Of a stretch of DNA of 38,261 nt, positions 7,476 through 38,261 are shown one piece after another. Under the pieces are notes generated by a model. It saw only the letters and a list, made by a program, of their open reading frames with translations, ran no database searches and was not told the origin of the DNA. The stretch covers positions 7,288-45,548 of the forward strand of contig CACYHL010000002.1 in assembly GCA_902774205.1 (NCBI GenBank). Direction: 5' to 3'. This DNA comes from an uncultured Bacteroidota bacterium. GTDB lineage: Bacteria; Bacteroidota; Bacteroidia; Bacteroidales; WCHB1-69. The stretch's first letter is position 1, and each line of letters begins with the position of its first letter. The position numbers were made by a program, and so were the translations under genes.

Positions 7476-8156
7476 ATGAAGAAATTGGCATTATTTACAA
7501 TCGTGGCAGCGCTGATGACCGCCTGCTGCCTGATGACGACCGTTTTATTTACATCCTGCTTTTCACCCAACGGGCATTCGAAACATTATACCCCCGAGAT
7601 GATGGCAGAACATTATGAAATGTACAAGCAACAGATGGAAGAACTGCGGGATTATCTGCACCACGCTCTTAAAGACAGTTGCGTAATAGAAGTGGAATTT
7701 GATGGGGATAGTCTGAAGCACTTTTATATTGGTAACTATTATGGCTCTTCCGATTATTTCCACAAGGAAGCCCGTGCACATCAGGATTCCATGATGTCTG
7801 TCGTCGGGCTGACACGGCAGAAATTTGACGATATACAGCAAAAATTGAAATCAATGGGCTGTATAGGTGTAGAATATAATCAGTACATTCCGGATAAAAT
7901 AGTGATTCTTTTCCAGCGAGATGATATTGGGTGTTATAGCTACCTTATACAGACATATCCTATGACAGCCGAAAAGATAGCTAATGCTATAGATTTTCCT
8001 TTACATATCCCATACAATAACTATTGCATTTTTGACTATGATGGGAGCATGGGGGCGTTTGATACGGGAGGATGGAACGAAAGCGAAAAGAAACAGTTCT
8101 TGAAAAAACAGAAGTTGAAAAGAGTTTTATTGCAATGTGGGTTATGTGTATTATAA
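7476..8156 (+). CDS. Hypothetical lipoprotein
   Basis: 226-aa ORF with signal peptide and candidate lipobox Cys residues (TAC, FTSC). Confidence 0.75.
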   Translation: MKKLALFTIVAALMTACCLMTTVLFTSCFSPNGHSKHYTPEMMAEHYEMYKQQMEELRDYLHHALKDSCVIEVEFDGDSLKHFYIGNYYGSSDYFHKEARAHQDSMMSVVGLTRQKFDDIQQKLKSMGCIGVEYNQYIPDKIVILFQRDDIGCYSYLIQTYPMTAEKIANAIDFPLHIPYNNYCIFDYDGSMGAFDTGGWNESEKKQFLKKQKLKRVLLQCGLCVL

Positions 8157-9110: not shown

Positions 9111-10770
9111 CATAATTACGGCAATTCTAACATTAATGGCAGGCATCGGCGTTTTCCTGATGGCCTGTCATTTGATGAGCTCGCATCTTGAGAGTGCGGG
9201 CAGCAAGCGGCTGAAGCAGCTATTTTCAAGCGTAAGCGGGAGTAAATGGACCGGTGTGGGCATCGGTGCTCTTGGTACAGCAGCAATCCAGAGTTCAGGG
9301 GCAGTGACGGTGATGGTAATCGGCTTCGTGAACGTGGGCATCATGTCGCTGGCGCAAGCCTCCACGGTTATCTATGGCGCCAACATCGGCACCACCGTGA
9401 CAGCACAACTGGTGGCCTTGGGTCTGTCCAGTGGGAATGGCATTTCCACCACCATCATATTCTCTGCCCTCGCCGGTGTAGGTGCCTTCATACTGATGTT
9501 CGCCAAACGCGAGTCGTGGAAACACACGGGCGGTATCTTAACTGGCTTCGGCATATTGTTCGTGGGACTTGGCATGATGTCGAACGCCATGGACGACTTC
9601 GCCACACTTGACTCGGTGAAACAATTCCTTGCGAGTATCGAAAACCCGCTTCTAATAGTGTTATTGGGGGCTTTATTCACTGCAATCATCCAAAGCTCTT
9701 CGGTACTCACTTCCATTGCCATCACTATGGTGGTTGCTGGGTTGATTTCGCTCAACCAAGGCATCTATCTCACTATGGGTTCCAACATAGGCTCGTGCGT
9801 CGTAGCCATTCTTGCCGGAATGACAAGTGGCACCAACGCCAAACGGACAGCGCTCATCCACCTGTTTTTCAACATCATGGGCGTGGTGCTGTTTTTGCTG
9901 ATAGCCTTGGTTTTACGCATGGCAACAAACGGAACATGGAGCTTCGGTGCTGTTTTTGAGCATATCTTTCCACATACGCCGCAGGTACAGATGGCAATGT
10001 TCCACACAGTATTCAACGTTTGCACCACCCTTGTGGCTTTGCCGTTGACAGAGAAGCTGGTCAGACTCGTATGCCGAATCATTTCCGACAACGGAGAAAC
10101 ATCACGCGACAACCAGCCGCATCTGTATTTCCTTGACGAAACGATGTTGCGTACACCTGCTTTGGCTGTAAAACAATTAAAATCAGAGATTGAGAACATG
10201 GCAAAACTGTCAATGGACAACTTCCAACGTTCCATAAACATTGTTACCACCATGAATTTCAGCGAAACGAAACAATTCGTCAAGACCGAGAAAGAGCTAA
10301 ACTACCTAAACGGCGAGTTGCTGCGGTATGCGGTGTTACTCTCCGGCAACCAACTCAATAATTCCGATTTGAAATACTTGAACTCGAGCATACGTAGCGT
10401 GAGCGACTTGGAGCGCATTGGCGACTATGCCGAAAATATTGTTGAATACGCCGAAAGCCTTAAGTCGCAAGATGCTTCATTTTCCGAAAAAGCAATTGAT
10501 GAAATCCGCAAGATGGAGAAAAAAATTCTCGACTTGTATGAAGTAATCTGTGACGCTTATCATAACCTCAACCTCAAAGCTTTGGAGTGGGCTTATATCA
10601 TCGAAGATGAGATTGACGACCTTACAGATGAGATGGAGCGCAATCACATCCAGCGACTTGTCAATGGTGAATGCACGCCACAAGTTGGTGCGGAATATCT
10701 TTCTCTGGCGAAAAATGCCGAACGCATCGCAGACCATTTGATTAATGTTGGAAATACGATAAAACAATGA
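9100..10770 (+). CDS. Na+/Pi cotransporter family protein with PhoU domains
   Basis: Two QSSG/QSSS repeats, GANIGTT and GSNIGS, C-terminal DLERIGDYA and ERIADH. Confidence 0.95.
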   Translation: MTISIITAILTLMAGIGVFLMACHLMSSHLESAGSKRLKQLFSSVSGSKWTGVGIGALGTAAIQSSGAVTVMVIGFVNVGIMSLAQASTVIYGANIGTTVTAQLVALGLSSGNGISTTIIFSALAGVGAFILMFAKRESWKHTGGILTGFGILFVGLGMMSNAMDDFATLDSVKQFLASIENPLLIVLLGALFTAIIQSSSVLTSIAITMVVAGLISLNQGIYLTMGSNIGSCVVAILAGMTSGTNAKRTALIHLFFNIMGVVLFLLIALVLRMATNGTWSFGAVFEHIFPHTPQVQMAMFHTVFNVCTTLVALPLTEKLVRLVCRIISDNGETSRDNQPHLYFLDETMLRTPALAVKQLKSEIENMAKLSMDNFQRSINIVTTMNFSETKQFVKTEKELNYLNGELLRYAVLLSGNQLNNSDLKYLNSSIRSVSDLERIGDYAENIVEYAESLKSQDASFSEKAIDEIRKMEKKILDLYEVICDAYHNLNLKALEWAYIIEDEIDDLTDEMERNHIQRLVNGECTPQVGAEYLSLAKNAERIADHLINVGNTIKQ

Positions 10771-10859
10771 CGACTTGGACTTCCATAACCTTGGTCGATA
10801 AATTAAGTGCAATTCAGGCAACGGCTTGGCCCGCAACATTTTTTCATCTTTTTTTAAAA

Positions 10860-10910
10860 ATATCGTTCACGATATAAATTATTTTTGTGTTTTTGCATCG
10901 TGAACGATAT
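10860..10910. promoter_or_regulatory. Two palindromic MarR/OhrR operator-like boxes flanking the promoter
   Basis: ATATCGT-TC-ACGATAT at 10860-10875; 10897-10910 is the exact reverse complement of 10860-10873. Confidence 0.75.
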
Positions 10911-10917
10911 AAAAACA

Positions 10918-11361
10918 ATGGCAGAAGAGCAATTCAAATTAGAGAACCAACTTTGTTTCCGTCTCTACACGGCGGCGCGGCTGACTATGGGGGCATATCA
11001 TCCGTATTTGGAACCGCTGGGCATCACCTATCCGCAATACCTCGTGCTGCTCGTGTTGTGGGAAAAGGACAAACGACCGGTATGTGACATAGGCAAACGT
11101 CTGCTCTTGGAGACCAACACCATCACCCCGCTCCTGCAACGTATGGAGAAAGCGGGATTGGTGACCCGCACGCGCGGCAAGGAGGATTCGCGCCAGCGTA
11201 TCGTCTCGCTTACGGAAAAAGGAGATGACCTGCGAAATCAGGCGGCCGTCATCCACGAGAGTTTGCGTAAGGAGGTGGCATTGAAATTGAGTGAGGAGAA
11301 AGAGATGGTTCCAATGCTTGATAAATTGATTGAAGAATTACAAAAACTCAATAAAAAATAA
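10918..11361 (+). CDS. MarR family regulator, OhrR-like
   Basis: LENQLCFRLY with the sensor Cys, GITYPQYLVLLVLWE, TITPLLQRME, DSR. Confidence 0.93.
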   Translation: MAEEQFKLENQLCFRLYTAARLTMGAYHPYLEPLGITYPQYLVLLVLWEKDKRPVCDIGKRLLLETNTITPLLQRMEKAGLVTRTRGKEDSRQRIVSLTEKGDDLRNQAAVIHESLRKEVALKLSEEKEMVPMLDKLIEELQKLNKK

Positions 11362-11386
11362 TATTAACATTCAAAATTTAAAAGTT

Positions 11387-11848
11387 ATGACAAAAGAAGA
11401 AGCAATGAAAGGCCTGGCATACGCCGGCGCAGTATGGTTTGGAAACAGCAAGCAGCATTTCGCCTTCTCGGCTTATTGCCGTCTGCAAGGCTGGAACAAG
11501 TTGGCTGACAAGTGGAAAGAGGAAGCCGAAGAGGAATGGGAAGAAGCTGAAGAGGTGCTGAACCGTTTGGTGGAACTCGGATGCAAACCCGCTGATCTTC
11601 AAGAAGCCATGAAGACCATCGAGTTCCCCTTCTACGATGACCCGAAACAGCAGATCGAGTCGGATTACCAACCCGATGCCGTAAAGGAAATGAGCCTGCT
11701 CGCAGAGGCGTTCGCTGATGATTATCCCACGCAGAAGCTGATCCAGAAATGGATTGACGGCGAGAAGGAACACATGGCCTGGGAGATGCAGTATCTCAAC
11801 TACATCGACAAGCTGGGCTACGAGAATTTCCTCACGGCGATGATGTAG
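11387..11848 (+). CDS. Ferritin-like (bacterioferritin-related) protein
   Basis: GWNKLA...EAEEE...RLVELG, DYPT...GEKEH, IDKLGYENFL pattern of the bacterioferritin fold. Confidence 0.8.
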   Translation: MTKEEAMKGLAYAGAVWFGNSKQHFAFSAYCRLQGWNKLADKWKEEAEEEWEEAEEVLNRLVELGCKPADLQEAMKTIEFPFYDDPKQQIESDYQPDAVKEMSLLAEAFADDYPTQKLIQKWIDGEKEHMAWEMQYLNYIDKLGYENFLTAMM

Positions 11849-31920: not shown

Positions 31921-33273
31921 TTACAGTAAAGGCACCATGTATAGAGGCAGGTATGTCAGGCCGTCTTTGATTTCCATATCTTTTGAATGAATCACATACG
32001 GGGTTGACAAATAATTTCTGTATTTTTCAATGCATTTCTTGATGGATGTCAGCGTGTAGTTGGTGCTGCTCTTTACCTCAATCGGGGAAATGTTGTGCCT
32101 TGAGGTGACGATTCCCTTCTGCACCAGAAAGTCGATTTCCATACGATTTTCAGCAGTCTCTTTGTCATAACTGCTGTAGAAAAACAGCTTTTGGCCCCTG
32201 GCCTTCAGCATTTGCGCAACGATGTTTTCCACCAGCATTCCCTGATTGATTTCCAGCTTGTCAAACATCAGTTTTTGGTATATTTCATTGCTTACGACTC
32301 CTCTTGCATTGAAGGCAAGCGAAATCAGCAGCCCCGTATCGCAGAAGTAGCATTTGAGCGTGGTGCGGTCTTCGTTGAGTCGCAGGCCAATGTTGGGAGC
32401 GGTTGTGTTGTAGCAAATGTTTGCGATGCGGGCATCGTCCAGCCAGAAGAATGCACTGTCATACTCACGCATCCGGGCCTCGTCTTTCAGGGCTGAAAGG
32501 GTGAACTTTTTCTCATGCTTCTGCAGTTGTCCGGGAATGGCATCATAAATGGCCGATACTCTTGAAGTTGCAGAACCGGCGTACTTTTGTATGTCGTTTT
32601 TGTAAAGCCGCAAAATCTGGCGCTTGATGGAATCCACTTTGTTGAAATCCTTGCTCTGCACGTATTCTGCAACCGCTTGCGGCATTCCTCCCACAATCAG
32701 GTACTGGCGGAAATAATGCATCGCCTCACGATGAAAATCTCCCATTGGCTTTTGCTTCTCGAATTGGTTCATGATGTAGGGCATCAACAACTCGTTGCCC
32801 ATAGCCCAAAGAAATTCCTCAAAGTCCATCGGATGCATGTCAATCCCTTCCTCTTCGGACGGGATGACAATGCTTTCTACATTTTTACGGATGGAAATGA
32901 GCGATCCGGTTTCCAGATAATCAAAACGATGGTCGGCTACCAGGGTTTTGATGGCTTCACGGGCACGAGGACATCTCTGCACTTCATCGAAAATGATGAG
33001 TGATTTGCGACGTGTAAGCGTTTTCTTATAGTGAAGTTGAATGTTTTGAAGAAGCGTGTCCACGTCTTCCATGTATTCATTGAACCATTCTTTAACACGA
33101 GTGGGGGCTTTGCTAAAGTCAATCAAAATGTAGGATTCGTACTCATTGCGGGCGAATTCCTCTGCAATATAGCTTTTGCCGATACGTCGCGCGCCTTCGA
33201 TGAGAAGAGCTGTTGTACCGTCTTTCTCCTGTTTCCATTGAACAAGTTTATCGTATATTTTTCTTTTCATCAT
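31921..33273 (-). CDS. AAA_14 ATPase with DUF4143 / PD-(D/E)xK-like C-terminus
   Basis: GARRIGKS, IIFDEVQ, ETGS, GGMP, DTGLL, EIDF...PIEVKS. Confidence 0.93.
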   Translation of the reverse strand: MMKRKIYDKLVQWKQEKDGTTALLIEGARRIGKSYIAEEFARNEYESYILIDFSKAPTRVKEWFNEYMEDVDTLLQNIQLHYKKTLTRRKSLIIFDEVQRCPRAREAIKTLVADHRFDYLETGSLISIRKNVESIVIPSEEEGIDMHPMDFEEFLWAMGNELLMPYIMNQFEKQKPMGDFHREAMHYFRQYLIVGGMPQAVAEYVQSKDFNKVDSIKRQILRLYKNDIQKYAGSATSRVSAIYDAIPGQLQKHEKKFTLSALKDEARMREYDSAFFWLDDARIANICYNTTAPNIGLRLNEDRTTLKCYFCDTGLLISLAFNARGVVSNEIYQKLMFDKLEINQGMLVENIVAQMLKARGQKLFFYSSYDKETAENRMEIDFLVQKGIVTSRHNISPIEVKSSTNYTLTSIKKCIEKYRNYLSTPYVIHSKDMEIKDGLTYLPLYMVPLL

Positions 33274-33360
33274 CACTTTTCCGCGATTTTTACAAACGTG
33301 CTTTATACACCTTTCCGCGATTTTTTTAGTATAGTAAAATACACCTTTCCGCGATTTTTT
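33274..33360. repeat. Three direct repeats at 34-nt period in the AAA gene leader
   Basis: CAC(C/T)TTTCCGCGATTTTT with CCGCG cores at 33281, 33315 and 33349. Confidence 0.9.
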
Positions 33361-33499
33361 AATGCGGCAAAGATACAATTAATTTGAAAATGGAGAATGG
33401 AAAACGGAAAATTGAAAAGTTTTTAGCCTTTGATTTCACCTCCCCGATTTTAAACTTTTATTCTTTGCAACCGTCTAAATTTTTTTCAGACTATCGCCT

Positions 33500-36010
33500 A
33501 TGCACCGAAGAATACCCCTTTTCCTGCTGATATTGCTTATGGGAATTTCCACCGTTTTGGGCCAAGCGGTCGTCATCCCGCCCGACAGCACCGAAACTGA
33601 TTATGAGGATGTGGACGATTTCCTGTTTGATACAGAGGGACTTGACGACGAGGATGCCGACTTCGGCGGCTACAACCCCGGCGTGATGAAGTCGACCGAT
33701 GATGTGTTTTCCAACAATGCGGCCGTGTCGTTCAACATCGCCTACTTCAAGAACCGCGGCTTGGAGTCGCGCTACCAAACCATCGCCATCAATGGTTTGG
33801 AGATGGAGAACTTGGTGCTGGGCCGTGCCTCCAACACCCAGTGGGGCGGCCTCACCCGCATCTTCAACGGCGCGGAGTGCAAGCTGAACCTCAGCGCGTC
33901 GCCGTTTGCCTTCGGCGACATCGGCGGCTCCTCCAACTACAACATCCGCGCCTCCTCTTTCCGTAAACAGCTGAGCGCCAACTACACCCTCGGCAACGGA
34001 AGCTACAACCACCGTTTCATGCTGACTTACGCCTCCGGCAAACTCAAAAACGGCTGGTCGGTGGCCGCCTCTGCCTCCGCCCGCTTCGGCACGCAACTCA
34101 ATTACGTGAAGGGCACCTCTTTCCTCGGTTTCTCCTACTTCCTCGGATTTGAAAAGCAGTTCAACAACCGCCATTCGCTCAGCTTTTCAGCATTTGGCGC
34201 ACCCACTCTGCAAGGGCTGCAGGCCAACTGTGTGCCAGAGGTTTACGAAATCACCGGCACTCATTACTACAACCCCAACTGGGGCTGGTACGAGGGCAAA
34301 CGGCGCAACGCCCGCGTGCGCGACACCTACGAGCCGGTCTTCCTGCTCTCGCACGTTTTCAACTCTGCTGATAAGAAAGTGCAGGTAACCACCACGTTGG
34401 GGAGCTCTTTCGGACATAAAAACACCTCCGCGTTCAACTTCGTGAAAACCTCCGACCCGCGCCCCGACTACTACCGCTACCTCCCCTCTTACTTCGACGA
34501 CGATCCCGAACAGCAGGAGTGGGTGATACAACAATGGGCTGAAAATGAAGACTATCGGCAAATCAACTGGGAGCAGCTCTACGAAGCCAACCGCCAGTCA
34601 ACCGCACTGGGCGGTCCTTCGCAATACATCATCGAAAACCGCATCTCGCAGCACGTGCAGGTCTCAGGTGCCACCTCCCTCACGGCCCGACTCAGCGACC
34701 ATATCAACCTCTATGCCGGCTTGGATGTGCGGGGCTACCGCCAACGCAACTTCAAGAAAGTAAGCGACTTGTTGGGTGGTGAATACTGGCTTAGCAAGGA
34801 CAAATACGCTGATACGCTGGCCGACCCGATGCTCCAGTACTACGACATCGACAATGCCGAAGCCCACCTCGTGGAGGGCGACAAGTGTGGCTACGACTAT
34901 GCCCTCAACATCTTCCGTGAGAACCTGTGGGCGACGCTGCTGGGCGAGTATGAGCACCTGCGCTTCCATATCGGCCTCAACGGCACCATGAGCGAGGTGT
35001 GGCGCACCGGCTTTATGCGTTATGGCGCCTACCACGACGAGGCCGCCGGCAACTCCCCCATGCAGCTCTGGCTCAACTACGGGGCCAAGGCGGGCATCGC
35101 CTACAAAATTGACAAGCATAACACGCTCGAAATCAACGCACAATGGCAGACCGCCGCGCCTTCAGCTGCCAACATCTTCGTCAACGCGCTCTACAGCAAC
35201 CGCTTCATTAACGATTTGAGGAGCGAAAAAGATTTGGCTGCTGATTTTTCCTACATCATGAACTACAAGTTTTTGCGAATGCGGGCATCCTTCTATTTTA
35301 TCAATTTCCAAGATGTTACCGAGCATTACAACTTCTACCACGACCTCTACGGAGGCTTTGTCAACTATGCGCTTACCGGGGTGAACAAACGCAATATCGG
35401 CGTAGAGCTGGGGTTGGAAATCCCTATCGGAAAGATGTTTGCCGTGACGATGGCGGGCAACTGGGGCGATTTCATCGTCACCAACCGTCCAACGGCCTCC
35501 ATCACCGCCAACAACGGCTATGCCGAACTGACACCCGGCAGCAAAGAGGTGGTGCACACCATCTATTGGCAGAACTACCATGTGGCCGGCACCCCGCAGA
35601 TTGCCGCCACCTTAGGCCTGAAATTCAAGCACAAAGACTGGGAAGTGAAGATCAACGCCAACTATTTCGACAAAATTTACGCTGCCCTGAACCCCGAGCG
35701 TTACACCCCCGAAGCCCGCGGCTACCTCGACGAAGGCAGCGACCAGCTGAATGCCATCATCGCACAGGAACGGCTGAAAGGGCAGTTCACCTTGGATGCC
35801 TCGCTCAGCAAGTCGTGGAAAATCAAGAAGCACTCCCTCGGCTTCAGTCTCAAAGTGACCAACATTACCAACAACAAGAACCTCGTCACCTCCGTCAACG
35901 AGCAGCACCGTTTCAACTACTCCGAGCACAACGCCGACTCTTTCCCCAACAAATATTATTACGCGTTGGGGACCACTTTTAATTTTGGGATTAGTTATTC
36001 ATTGAATTAA
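33500..36010 (+). CDS. TonB-dependent outer-membrane receptor
   Basis: Signal peptide, plug-like RG...INGLEM...WGGL, many amphipathic beta strands, C-terminal FGISYSLN. Confidence 0.88.
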   Translation: MHRRIPLFLLILLMGISTVLGQAVVIPPDSTETDYEDVDDFLFDTEGLDDEDADFGGYNPGVMKSTDDVFSNNAAVSFNIAYFKNRGLESRYQTIAINGLEMENLVLGRASNTQWGGLTRIFNGAECKLNLSASPFAFGDIGGSSNYNIRASSFRKQLSANYTLGNGSYNHRFMLTYASGKLKNGWSVAASASARFGTQLNYVKGTSFLGFSYFLGFEKQFNNRHSLSFSAFGAPTLQGLQANCVPEVYEITGTHYYNPNWGWYEGKRRNARVRDTYEPVFLLSHVFNSADKKVQVTTTLGSSFGHKNTSAFNFVKTSDPRPDYYRYLPSYFDDDPEQQEWVIQQWAENEDYRQINWEQLYEANRQSTALGGPSQYIIENRISQHVQVSGATSLTARLSDHINLYAGLDVRGYRQRNFKKVSDLLGGEYWLSKDKYADTLADPMLQYYDIDNAEAHLVEGDKCGYDYALNIFRENLWATLLGEYEHLRFHIGLNGTMSEVWRTGFMRYGAYHDEAAGNSPMQLWLNYGAKAGIAYKIDKHNTLEINAQWQTAAPSAANIFVNALYSNRFINDLRSEKDLAADFSYIMNYKFLRMRASFYFINFQDVTEHYNFYHDLYGGFVNYALTGVNKRNIGVELGLEIPIGKMFAVTMAGNWGDFIVTNRPTASITANNGYAELTPGSKEVVHTIYWQNYHVAGTPQIAATLGLKFKHKDWEVKINANYFDKIYAALNPERYTPEARGYLDEGSDQLNAIIAQERLKGQFTLDASLSKSWKIKKHSLGFSLKVTNITNNKNLVTSVNEQHRFNYSEHNADSFPNKYYYALGTTFNFGISYSLN

Positions 36011-36044
36011 AAAGTTTTTATCTCTTTGGAAGATACCGCGTTCT

Positions 36045-36330
36045 CTCATTCTGTAATGAGGTTTAAAACGCATATTCGCGGCACGCTGATAGCAGCATAG
36101 TACCTGACGGCAGGTTTGTCGCGGAAGAACGGGCGGTATGATAGGGGTGCAGATACCGCAGGACGGAGTGAGGTGATAGTGAAAGTGGGCTGGGGAAAAG
36201 AAAAACGCTGTCGTGGTCTTTGACAGCGTTTTTGTCTTCCTTGATGTCCGCGACAACGATTGAAGCGGTTACAAGCCCCTTGTGGGCGCAGTTCGAGCGG
36301 AAAGCGTGCCCGGTCGCCCAAAGAAAAAAA
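36045..36330. other. Highly structured non-coding segment (candidate ncRNA or ssDNA element)
   Basis: Nested stems 36116-36125/36247-36256, 36133-36139/36153-36159, 36201-36212/36222-36233, 36283-36288/36315-36320, plus small hairpins. Confidence 0.55.
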
Positions 36331-36350
36331 TTAGACTTCAAGCCATCATT

Positions 36351-36385
36351 AGTTTAACGTACCCGAAATATCAGGTCATAAAAAC
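36351..36385. repeat. 35-nt cassette repeat, copy 1 (degenerate, 31/35)
   Basis: AGTTTAACGTACCCGAAATATCAGGTCATAAAAAC. Confidence 0.92.
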
Positions 36386-36401
36386 TCAACCCAAAGATTA
36401 T

Positions 36402-36959
36402 TTACTCAGCAACCGAACCTATGTGAATCCATTTCAACTTGCCATTCGGACACCAGAATTCCGTGCCTCCATAGATGCTTCCAAGAAACACACGGTCTTT
36501 ATCCGTCAGTTCCTCATTCAAGATATCCTTGTAGCGGTCATAAACCCTGTCTTTGGTATCACCCACCTTAACGCCTCTACTTGTTTTGTATCGGTTGCAG
36601 GAAGTAACCATGATCGAAAAAACAGACGATGGGGCGCCCTCTGCGTCCGACTCCATATCCAGAACTATGCCGTCATATATCCACTCCGTATAGAAAAAAC
36701 CTGAAAACTCCATAAATCCCTCATAGACAACAGAATCTGGTTTGCCAAGTTTGTTGAGGACGACTGTATCGGTCACACCGACAGTCAACCAGCCATTAAT
36801 TGTGTCAAACATAAATTCTTCGTCCTCCTCAGATACCTCTGATGATTTAACAATTTCTCTATCGGGAAAATGTGAAGTATCCTCAACTACAACTTTGCTC
36901 TTGCATGCCATTAACCCGAGGGCGAGTACCACTGCGCAAAAAATTACTGTTTTCTTCAT
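36402..36959 (-). CDS. Hypothetical lipoprotein (cassette gene)
   Basis: Lipobox LMAC; LGKPD and TSRGVKVGD motifs. Confidence 0.85.
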   Translation of the reverse strand: MKKTVIFCAVVLALGLMACKSKVVVEDTSHFPDREIVKSSEVSEEDEEFMFDTINGWLTVGVTDTVVLNKLGKPDSVVYEGFMEFSGFFYTEWIYDGIVLDMESDAEGAPSSVFSIMVTSCNRYKTSRGVKVGDTKDRVYDRYKDILNEELTDKDRVFLGSIYGGTEFWCPNGKLKWIHIGSVAE

Positions 36960-37009
36960 AATTACTGATGCCTATGTTTATAAAATCCACAGTGTCATTG
37001 CGGATTTTT

Positions 37010-37044
37010 GTTTTAACGCACTCGAAATATCAGGTCATAAAAAC
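37010..37044. repeat. 35-nt cassette repeat, copy 2
   Basis: GTTTTAACGCACTCGAAATATCAGGTCATAAAAAC. Confidence 0.95.
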
Positions 37045-37108
37045 GGTAGGTGGAAAAAAGAATGATGAAAGCACAAAGACCGTTGATGACGGGTGCGGAA
37101 AGGTCTGG

Positions 37109-37399
37109 CTATTCCTCTTTTTTCGAAAATCTATTGATGAATAGAAGGATTATATCGCTTATCAATGTCGTTGCTCCGAATAGGGCGTAAATATAAAGTG
37201 CTGTAACCAATTCGTCTCTTCCTCCGAAAAAAGGGAGGATCAGAATAATGAATAGATAGAATGAGCAAACGGCAACAATATGTATGATATTGATGGTCTT
37301 AAGCAAGAGAACGTTCTTGTGAATTAGCCCATGGTAGGTGCCTGAAAGCACAATCACGCTGAGAGCAAGAATTACTATCGGGATGAAAAATAGTGCCAT
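37109..37399 (-). CDS. Small 3-TM membrane protein (cassette gene)
   Basis: 96-aa hydrophobic ORF between repeats 2 and 3. Confidence 0.75.
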   Translation of the reverse strand: MALFFIPIVILALSVIVLSGTYHGLIHKNVLLLKTINIIHIVAVCSFYLFIILILPFFGGRDELVTALYIYALFGATTLISDIILLFINRFSKKEE

Positions 37400-37446
37400 T
37401 TCCAGAATGTTATTATTTTTTAACGATAAATTTGTTTGGATATTGT

Positions 37447-37481
37447 GTTTTAACGCACTCGAAATATCAGGTCATAAAAAC
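37447..37481. repeat. 35-nt cassette repeat, copy 3
   Basis: Identical to copy 2 (36 nt including the preceding T). Confidence 0.95.
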
Positions 37482-37644
37482 TTATTGGGAGTGCTTGTCA
37501 TATAATAATAAGTATGCAAGTACTATTATTGTAAATAAAAAGCGCATTTCGTTATTTTTTTGAAAAAATTCTTTTTTAGATTGGCAATATGAATATGTTA
37601 AATGCAGTAATAGCCGACTTAATTATTGTCAGAATTAACATGGA

Positions 37645-38133
37645 TTAAAATTCTGTAAATGGCGATGAAAAAATCGGAAAACACAGTTGTTCTCTCTTCA
37701 TCTTTATTCCCGGTTCACTTATACTTACAAAATTCAAAGATTTTACAAAATGGTTTACGATATTATTGATCGTATCTTGGGGGATATTTATTACAGGCAT
37801 AAAGTTCTCAGAAACCCATACAGAATCAACGATAAGATAAATACTATTTTCAACATCTACTGCTCTAATATATATATTGGCAGGTATTAAAATGGAATCA
37901 GATAACGAGGTATCTATAATGTTACAAAAGTGTTTTTCCCCTTTTGCTAAAAATGGAGAAATAACGGCAAAATGCCAATCCATATTCCTCGAATATAAAG
38001 AGAAGCAACTATCTTCTTGTAGCATACTATCAAATTCTTTTTGTCCGAGCAAATGGACTTTAAACACTTGAGCCTCAATTGACTTTGCCACAAAAGTTAA
38101 ACACAAAAACAATATCAATACTTTAATTTTCAT
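37645..38133 (-). CDS. Hypothetical exported protein
   Basis: Signal peptide (IEA-Q); own TAACTTTG promoter near 38182-38189. Confidence 0.75.
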   Translation of the reverse strand: MKIKVLILFLCLTFVAKSIEAQVFKVHLLGQKEFDSMLQEDSCFSLYSRNMDWHFAVISPFLAKGEKHFCNIIDTSLSDSILIPANIYIRAVDVENSIYLIVDSVWVSENFMPVINIPQDTINNIVNHFVKSLNFVSISEPGIKMKREQLCFPIFSSPFTEF

Positions 38134-38261
38134 TATTATGGCTATTTGGGATAAAATTCATTAATCTATAGATTCAAGTGGCAAAGTTATAAAATAAATC
38201 AGCAGGGGAGTTAAAAAAAATGACCTTACGAGGTCTGTAGTTTAACTTATTTTGAATAACC

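Follow-up and report, generated by a model that had tools for sequence, protein, structure and literature searches.

The window analysed here is a stretch of 38,261 nt from an uncultured bacterium of the Bacteroidales (lineage WCHB1-69; G000:C2:7288-45548, i.e. contig C2 of genome G000), and it carries close to its right end a 35-nt direct repeat, called R below, that alternates with small genes. With a probability of roughly one half, R is the junction site of an array of swappable one-gene cassettes in a phage-like element, the cassettes being exchanged site-specifically by an enzyme acting in trans. Such arrays occur in a defined platform that derives from a phage-like element, their cassettes are modular and turn over at a given locus, and no recombinase is linked to them. 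The window holds a relic of this accessory slot, split over contigs C144 and C2 of the same genome.

On the forward strand R reads GTTTTAACGCACTCGAAATATCAGGTCATAAAAAC, and exact copies are found at 37010-37044 and 37447-37481 of the window. In the direction of the genes it reads GTTTTTATGACCTGATATTTCGAGTGCGTTAAAAC. A third copy with four differences is located at 36351-36385, downstream of the last gene in gene direction. The three copies are separated by 624 and 402 nt, and the chance expectation for two matches with at most three mismatches was 0.00 in 100 shuffles of the window. Each interval (GC content 0.38 and 0.42) contains a single open reading frame (ORF) on the minus strand, coding for 185 and 96 aa. 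The start codons are 50 and 47 nt from the end of R, and the Bacteroidetes -7 box TAnnTTTG is absent from the gene strand between R and ATG in both cases. The initial annotation of this DNA, made from the letters alone, had described three direct repeats with one co-oriented, promoterless gene per interval, and this description was correct. The features of this part of the window are as follows.

33500..36010, plus strand: 836-aa outer-membrane-type gene (ORF); its operon partner is a 259-aa lipoprotein gene on C144.
36011..36193, minus strand: about 180 nt between the trailer terminator and the stop codon of the 836-aa gene, part of the inserted segment.
36194..36350, minus strand: conserved non-coding trailer, with a terminator hairpin at 36194-36240.
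36351..36385, minus strand: terminal variant of R, ending ...GTTAAACT in gene direction versus ...GTTAAAAC elsewhere.
36402..36959, minus strand: cassette gene (ORF), 185 aa, lipoprotein-like N-terminus.
37010..37044, minus strand: exact copy of R (sequence match).
37109..37399, minus strand: cassette gene (ORF), 96 aa, hydrophobic, predicted membrane protein.
37447..37481, minus strand: exact copy of R (sequence match).
37482..38133, minus strand: further unit, made of a 162-aa secreted-protein gene (37645-38133) and a 163-nt AT-rich 3' tail up to R.
38134..38261, minus strand: upstream region of the 162-aa gene up to the contig end (multi-copy sequence).

Since the window reaches the end of its contig, the array is truncated by the assembly. 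Two further exact copies of R are located at the end of contig C144, where they flank a gene for a 174-aa secreted protein, and the true leader of the window's array sits there, not on C2. The AT-rich stretch at 37482-37644, which had been taken for the array leader, proved to be the 3' untranslated tail of the 162-aa gene. The protein encoded by this gene has a signal-like start, its unit has a GC content of 0.27-0.32, and the gene possesses its own TAACTTTG box at 38182-38189.

R has a narrow distribution. Within three mismatches it is present in 19 of the 152 genomes of the family, belonging to 4 of 22 genera, with at most six copies per genome, and the copies are grouped by one to four at distances of a few hundred to about 1400 nt. 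For wider searches a degenerate 27-letter core of R was used. It matched 18 stretches among 185,579 species genomes, all from metagenome-assembled genomes named as rumen, abomasum or ruminal 'Bacteroidales bacterium', as well as 59 metagenome contigs, and no viral contig of IMG/VR. In the genomes, metagenomes and viral contigs searched, R is restricted to rumen Bacteroidales. After removal of duplicates, 71 unique arrays with 149 copies of R were retained, with one copy in 20 arrays, two in 30, three in 15 and four in 6. The repeat is nearly invariant, with common variation only at positions 14 (G/A), 16 (T/C), 23 and 26 (G/A), in a set where one copy per locus had been chosen by the search pattern itself. 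As a single DNA strand R does not fold: its minimum free energy is -0.5 kcal/mol, with z scores of 0.37 for the gene strand and 0.33 for the opposite one, and 108 of 200 shuffled sequences fold as well. Compared by eye, its two 14-nt ends match at 9 of 14 positions as inverted arms. R does not contain a TAnnTTTG box.

The arrays share a common frame. A conserved leader directly precedes the first R in 42 of the 69 arrays with enough sequence, a conserved trailer directly follows the last R in 45 of 68, and both are found in 29 arrays. The leader consists of a terminator hairpin, a promoter-like TATTTTTG -7 box and then about 95 nt, in this order; from its motif, this box is a putative promoter for the whole array. 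The trailer, aligned in 14 loci, closes with a terminator hairpin. One locus (L051) is an empty platform, in which leader and trailer enclose a single R. The last letters of R depend on what follows, with AAACT in 43 of the 46 copies that precede a trailer and AAAAC in 76 of the 78 that precede a cassette. The degenerate last copy that had been noted in the window is this terminal variant.

The 78 intervals between consecutive copies of R fall into 55 sequence clusters with unrelated bodies, and their length varies from 31 to 2397 nt (median 575). Thirty-eight of the 53 distinct intervals are filled to at least 60% by one co-oriented ORF. Over the 53 intervals the median distance is 32.5 nt from R to ATG, which leaves no room for a promoter, and 36.5 nt from the stop codon to the next R. 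The GC content of the cassettes is 0.28-0.57 (median 0.42). The initial proposal for the window, a polarised array in which single-gene cassettes stand between copies of a conserved repeat, is supported. According to a simple rule of our own, 30 of the 38 ORFs begin with a signal-like hydrophobic segment, in line with the suggestion that envelope-protein genes are stored; the cargo is mostly made of signal-peptide or membrane proteins. A Pfam scan of 28 cassette proteins gave RHS_repeat three times, Fib_succ_major once, two weak DUF matches and no immunity family. None of the four cassette proteins of the genome itself has an informative Pfam family above the cut-off. Homologs of the 185-aa protein form six unnamed protein clusters among 5.8 billion, its atlas matches are hypothetical Bacteroidota clusters only, and its AlphaFold2 model is unusable (pLDDT 36.5). 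No relevant Rfam match was found for window positions 33000-38261 or for loci L003 and L035.

The same cassette can be found in different company. A 152-aa cassette stands alone in L049, after a 378-aa cassette in L037 and after cassette c10 in L154. The 378-aa cassette occupies the first position in L037 and the third in L043, and cassette c6 the first in L033 and the second in L135. In all these cases the similarity between shared cassettes breaks at the edges of R.

Cassettes also turn over at a given locus. L044 and L172 have different cassettes between outer flanks that are both 95-97% identical. Metagenome contig L132 is 95.6% identical to the downstream flank in the window and 93.2% identical to the upstream flank on C144, and none of its three cassettes is among the assembled parts of the G000 array. 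Genome G123 shows the same insertion as G000, with an additional deletion in the leader and three other cassettes. L041 and L171, for which upstream sequence is lacking, are 98.7% identical in the downstream flank and differ by one extra cassette of 252 nt. Variable content among strains, which the initial annotation had named as a check, is thus observed, with different cassettes between flanks that are 93-99% identical. Four public runs were also inspected, in the form of Logan contigs of metagenomes, which break at every R. Run X2 has cover on the 185-aa cassette and none on the 96-aa one. X3 and X4 contain the latter as an identical 461-nt contig and lack cover on the 162-aa unit. Because these are metagenome contigs, they show only that the cassettes occur independently. 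Loose ends reading into the leader fit any copy of R and were given no weight.

The platform has a phage-like origin. At L035 (G040:C22), L039, L138, L148 and L175 it is located between a 197-aa and a 256-aa gene of a conserved gene set, which comprises a DnaG-type primase (1090 aa), a ClpP-like head-maturation protease (phrog_94), a 518-aa capsid-like protein and an endonuclease-like protein. Two other proteins of the element, of 200 and 568 aa, are taken to be packaging proteins. The 197-aa gene comes after the capsid-like gene, and the slot separates it from the packaging module. Seven further genome loci show this synteny too, with a variable slot of 681-3103 nt, and so do two IMG/VR contigs (29 and 33 kb); an eighth further locus, G011:C51, stops just past the 197-aa gene. 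The slots at the further loci are without R and have the same hairpin, a TAGTTTTG-type promoter and at least one low-GC gene, and in five of seven the same trailer. As the R-less slots share hairpin, trailer and synteny, the R-type arrays are one variant of the moron slot of this phage-like element. Neither an integrase nor obvious tail genes were seen in ORF maps of the element, the annotation of which is partial.

It is worth mentioning that the element is present at L035 (G040:C22), L107/L108 (G050:C6), L112/L113 (G093:C27) and L115/L116 (G118:C20), and that its genes also include amidase-like and ~440-aa proteins as well as unassigned proteins of 182, 150 and 256 aa. Behind the 568-aa gene there is a second slot of low GC. 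The element may be satellite-like, or one that forms capsids. Locus L142 is a hybrid of the R-type and R-less slot types: at 500-600, two copies of R lie 31 nt apart, and behind them come the 3' half of the terminator hairpin and a TACTTTTG promoter like those of the R-less slots.

Intact elements carry only 5 of the 71 arrays, and most of the others are accompanied by truncated remnants of the 197- and 256-aa genes or by none. On C144, residues 72-197 of the 197-aa gene remain ahead of the leader. The 836-aa gene of the window and the 259-aa lipoprotein gene (G000:C144:2518-3297) are neighbours with a 6-nt gap in G010:C46 and G119:C13, and G030:C37 and G048:C50 likewise have them side by side with no array. 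G000 and G123 carry the platform at this junction, inserted in the opposite orientation, and no target-site duplication was found at this insertion. The stretch at 36011-36193 is common to the window and to L033 (G123:C21), and absent from empty sites and intact elements. The two-gene operon is 88-96% identical across three genera, versus 45-57% for the regular orthologs in each genome, and its GC content of 0.55-0.6 is above the genome median of 0.447. From these sequence features, the operon looks like a laterally moving island.

We propose the following mechanism. The platform, located in the accessory slot of a phage-like element of about 25-30 kb in rumen Bacteroidales, consists of the leader, one R and the trailer. 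The leader provides a terminator hairpin, the TATTTTTG -7 box and what would be a leader RNA of about 95 nt, and the trailer includes a terminator. A cassette is one promoterless gene with its own 3' R, so that n cassettes give n+1 copies of R, and transcription of the cassettes would start from the leader promoter. They are gained, lost and reordered as whole units by recombination at R. The exchange point is probably within its last ~5 nt, and the enzyme would be a sequence-specific recombinase that another locus of the cell or a co-resident element supplies. In the relic, the leader and the first cassette lie on C144, and the last cassettes with the trailer at 36194-38261 of the window. The relic was inserted into the laterally transferred operon, and its cassettes have kept turning over there. 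Site-specific exchange is favoured because R is near-invariant among unrelated cassettes, because the n+1 rule applies and the empty platform has a single R, and because R belongs to the 3' end of the upstream gene with a localised switch point.

Rare variants of R can be used as markers of the exchange. A C30 variant follows cassette c10 both before another cassette (L154, AAAAC end) and before the trailer (L129, AAACT end). The R that follows the 378-aa cassette has G14 in L043, where the three other copies of R have A14. The R that precedes the 152-aa cassette differs in all four contexts. L154 contains three different variants of R, each of them equal to the variant found after the same cassette elsewhere; this argues against duplication of the repeat on insertion. 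On thin evidence, these markers would fit a unit made of a gene and its 3' R, with an exchange point in the interval bounded by position 30 and the end of the A-run, i.e. in the last ~5 nt.

A recombinase was looked for at several levels. The contig of the window has no match to a tyrosine recombinase or to Cas1, in agreement with the earlier statement that the window contains no cas or integrase gene. The genome as a whole has matches for one resolvase, two Y1 transposases, two Cas1 and eight tyrosine recombinases, none of them beside an array. The integron integrase model TIGR02249 gave no match above the cut-off (best score 77 bits versus 265) in this genome, which is 92% complete, so that absence of the integrase is not proven. 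A Y1 transposase (PF01797) was considered as the enzyme and rejected, as it is encoded in 116 of the 152 genomes, namely 19 of 19 with R and 97 of 133 without, and thus does not discriminate.

Several results weigh against site-specific exchange by such an enzyme. A tblastn scan of the loci with seven tyrosine recombinases of the same genome placed one near only 1 of the 71 arrays, 3.2 kb away and on the other strand, so that no linked recombinase was observed, a linkage that the initial annotation had proposed to test. The 125 flanking ORFs matched 136 Pfam families, and no recombinase family is among the 25 most recurrent ones. The genes mapped in an R-bearing element (G040) and in an R-less one (G050) are shared at 79-99% protein identity; as their ORF maps show no extra gene by the slot, the enzyme does not seem to come from the element itself. 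In a strict comparison of cassette pairs, made to see with which side R travels and based on pairs that are not independent of each other, 4 of 10 pairs whose upstream neighbours differ have the same 5' R, and 3 of 10 pairs whose downstream neighbours differ have the same 3' R. Cassette c8 has G26 at one locus and A26 at another, and all four combinations of positions 16 and 26 occur, which allows for exchange inside R. A crossover at the edge of the site, with no conservation beyond it, does not fit the two-arm core of a classical tyrosine recombinase. An Xer/dif-type site, for comparison, is 28 nt long with an 11-6-11 organisation and resembles the host dif. Finally, neither circles nor excision joints were found in the contigs of the public runs, apart from two weak joints in one contig each, with sides of 36-37 nt, which are given no weight.

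A more far-reaching version of the preferred reading, which we put forward tentatively and at less than even odds, is that these arrays constitute an undescribed system of cassette capture. It would combine a phage-borne platform, unstructured 35-bp sites at the 3' end of the genes, a fixed exchange in the last bases, an enzyme in trans, and relics in which cassettes are still swapped. The open-access literature yielded papers on rAID clusters and on integrons in phages, and nothing on R or its platform.

The main alternative is that R acts in gene expression within the moron slot, being involved in RNA processing or stability or recognised by a regulator, that it is conserved through selection on this function, and that shuffling is a by-product of short-homology recombination over 35 nt while related elements replicate. 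We regard this as possible although somewhat unlikely. It would make R comparable to the PeSL of T4-type phages, i.e. a strong promoter with a terminator stem-loop. In the published accounts, short repeats lie between small non-essential genes of hyperplastic regions that undergo modular shuffling (PMC2839356; PMC4122927), and shuffling by PeSL together with mini-circles is described (PMC2839356). The R arrays are also located in a hyperplastic slot of a phage-like element, and in the R-less sister element G034:C55 the slot (L118:6035-7605) contains two morons, each preceded by a near-copy of a unit made of the terminator hairpin and the TAGTTTTG promoter, which is a PeSL-like unit. The free combination of positions 16 and 26, the difference at position 26 of c8 and the lack of a linked recombinase would be expected as well. 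However, R has neither a stem-loop nor a TAnnTTTG box and is thus not a promoter-terminator unit. It stands 3' of its gene. A copy closes the array after the last gene and a single copy is present in the empty platform, neither of which is needed by a 5' expression element. The rare markers travel with the upstream gene and not with the downstream one, and the AAAAC/AAACT switch is confined to the last letters. The R arrays moreover persist, with continued turnover, in chromosomal relics without phage genes, unlike PeSL.

Much less probable is that the array is a rAID-1 cluster whose recombinase escaped detection through assembly breaks or decay. Both are found in Bacteroidales and are made of co-oriented, short genes of lower GC with a conserved, repetitive intergenic sequence, and the window's array is indeed cut by contig ends. 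rAID-1 is termed integron-like by its authors, and the way in which rAID clusters are assembled is still open, according to the two reports (10.1101/471110; PMC12247911). The GC criterion used for rAID-1, at least two co-oriented genes with a GC content of at most 41%, is to be compared with co-oriented R cassettes of median 0.42. Our distinction is based on the published description of rAID-1 and not on an alignment of motifs (10.1101/471110). A XerD-like recombinase is encoded 5' of rAID-1, whereas the 5' gene of the R arrays, where the flanks are complete, is the phage-like 197-aa gene or its remnant, and the only tyrosine recombinase that the tblastn scan placed near an R array is the one mentioned above. 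rAID-1 clusters reach 31 genes, are found in the human gut and carry orphan immunity genes; the R arrays have one to four copies of R, come from the rumen and show no recognisable immunity family, and their cassettes extend in GC content from 0.28 to 0.57.

It is very unlikely that the array is a relic of a classical integron, i.e. a cluster of attC sites lacking integrase (CALIN) that is served by IntI. Integrons are the textbook device for gene capture, and the general plan is similar, with promoterless one-gene cassettes that have a 3' site, a platform with a common promoter (here a promoter-like box upstream), n+1 sites and reshuffling among strains. The end of R, GTTAAAC/GTTAAAAC, also resembles the GTTRRRY core. 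An attC site is an imperfect palindrome, typically of 55-140 nt, that folds as a single strand (R''-L''...L'-R'), and attC sites share this structure rather than their sequence. R differs in being 35 nt long, unfolded and near-identical from copy to copy. The attC likeness noted in the initial annotation is not supported, given this lack of folding and the absence of an IntI match above the cut-off in the genome. In addition, the C30 marker places the apparent crossover to the right of GTT, in the last ~5 nt, and not between G and TT, and the platform of R is a phage-like accessory slot with a conserved trailer. attC clusters are known in phages, as reported in PMC9892861.

The last possibility, no more credible than the integron relic, is a CRISPR-like or Cas1-built array with gene-sized inserts added at the leader with duplication of the repeat; the leader, the direct repeats of typical length, the degenerate terminal copy, the GTTTT...AAAAC ends and the two Cas1 genes elsewhere in the genome are set against spacers of gene size in place of the short ones of similar length, tens of nt, that CRISPR arrays have, 38 of the 53 distinct ones being filled to at least 60% by a single gene, the low copy number of R per genome, its presence in no ordinary array, the different CRISPR repeats of the same genome (C187, C194), the three variants of L154 that target duplication would not produce, and the absence of a cas gene next to the 20 genome loci scanned, as judged from the 25 most recurrent of the 136 matched Pfam families. 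The CRISPR kinship that had been suggested for the repeat is not supported. Membership in CRISPR, integrons or rAID-1 fails on the defining features tested.

The R arrays are a compact and regular case, with a defined platform, 149 near-invariant sites, at least 55 cassettes, an empty platform and differences of a single cassette, and owing to this regularity the mechanism is directly testable. They link cassette arrays to the moron slots of phages. If an enzyme with a fixed crossover does exist, a new site-specific system would be at hand, which might also serve as a tool in the genetics of Bacteroidales. If there is no such enzyme, the arrays would be a clean bacterial-virus example of repeat-mediated modular shuffling outside the T4-type phages. 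Should the capture system be real, Bacteroidales and their phages would have evolved, independently, a functional analogue of integrons.

Some arrays show particular features. L036, L044, L120, L143 and L176 have cassettes with paralogous, cytoplasmic-looking proteins of ~110-125 aa that start with MEKQIIDG, and in L036 three of these paralogs follow each other in tandem with no R between them. A 107-113-aa ORF (starting with MKCTNSQKSKDM) runs against the direction of R in L043 and in the direction of R in L168, which indicates that the body of a cassette can be turned round with respect to R; in L148, an ORF of equal length is also opposite to R. L038 (G112:C94) contains two pairs of R in opposite orientation, about 2.7 kb apart (7712-8056 and 10714-11548). 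At 8006-8021 of this locus, 16 nt of an inverted R directly adjoin a complete copy, which may trace an inversion or an aberrant exchange inside R.

The end of the window deserves a comment. The region 38134-38261 contains, besides the TAACTTTG box, a hairpin with a T-run (38213-38235) and an 8-mer (38239-38246) that is identical to the end of the terminal R. The last 95 nt are multi-copy, each of the four public runs reaching a depth of 28-55 there, and contig breaks occur at 38167. The last 128 nt have one weak relative, in the slot of a sister element. This last stretch may be the edge of a second type of repeat. Elsewhere in the genome, at G000:C118:1775-5450, a broken integrase of Bacteroidetes type lies beside a low-GC run (0.27-0.40) of small ORFs, several of which share a conserved start region (MMNQENGGSKTE), forming another repeat-punctuated array of small genes.

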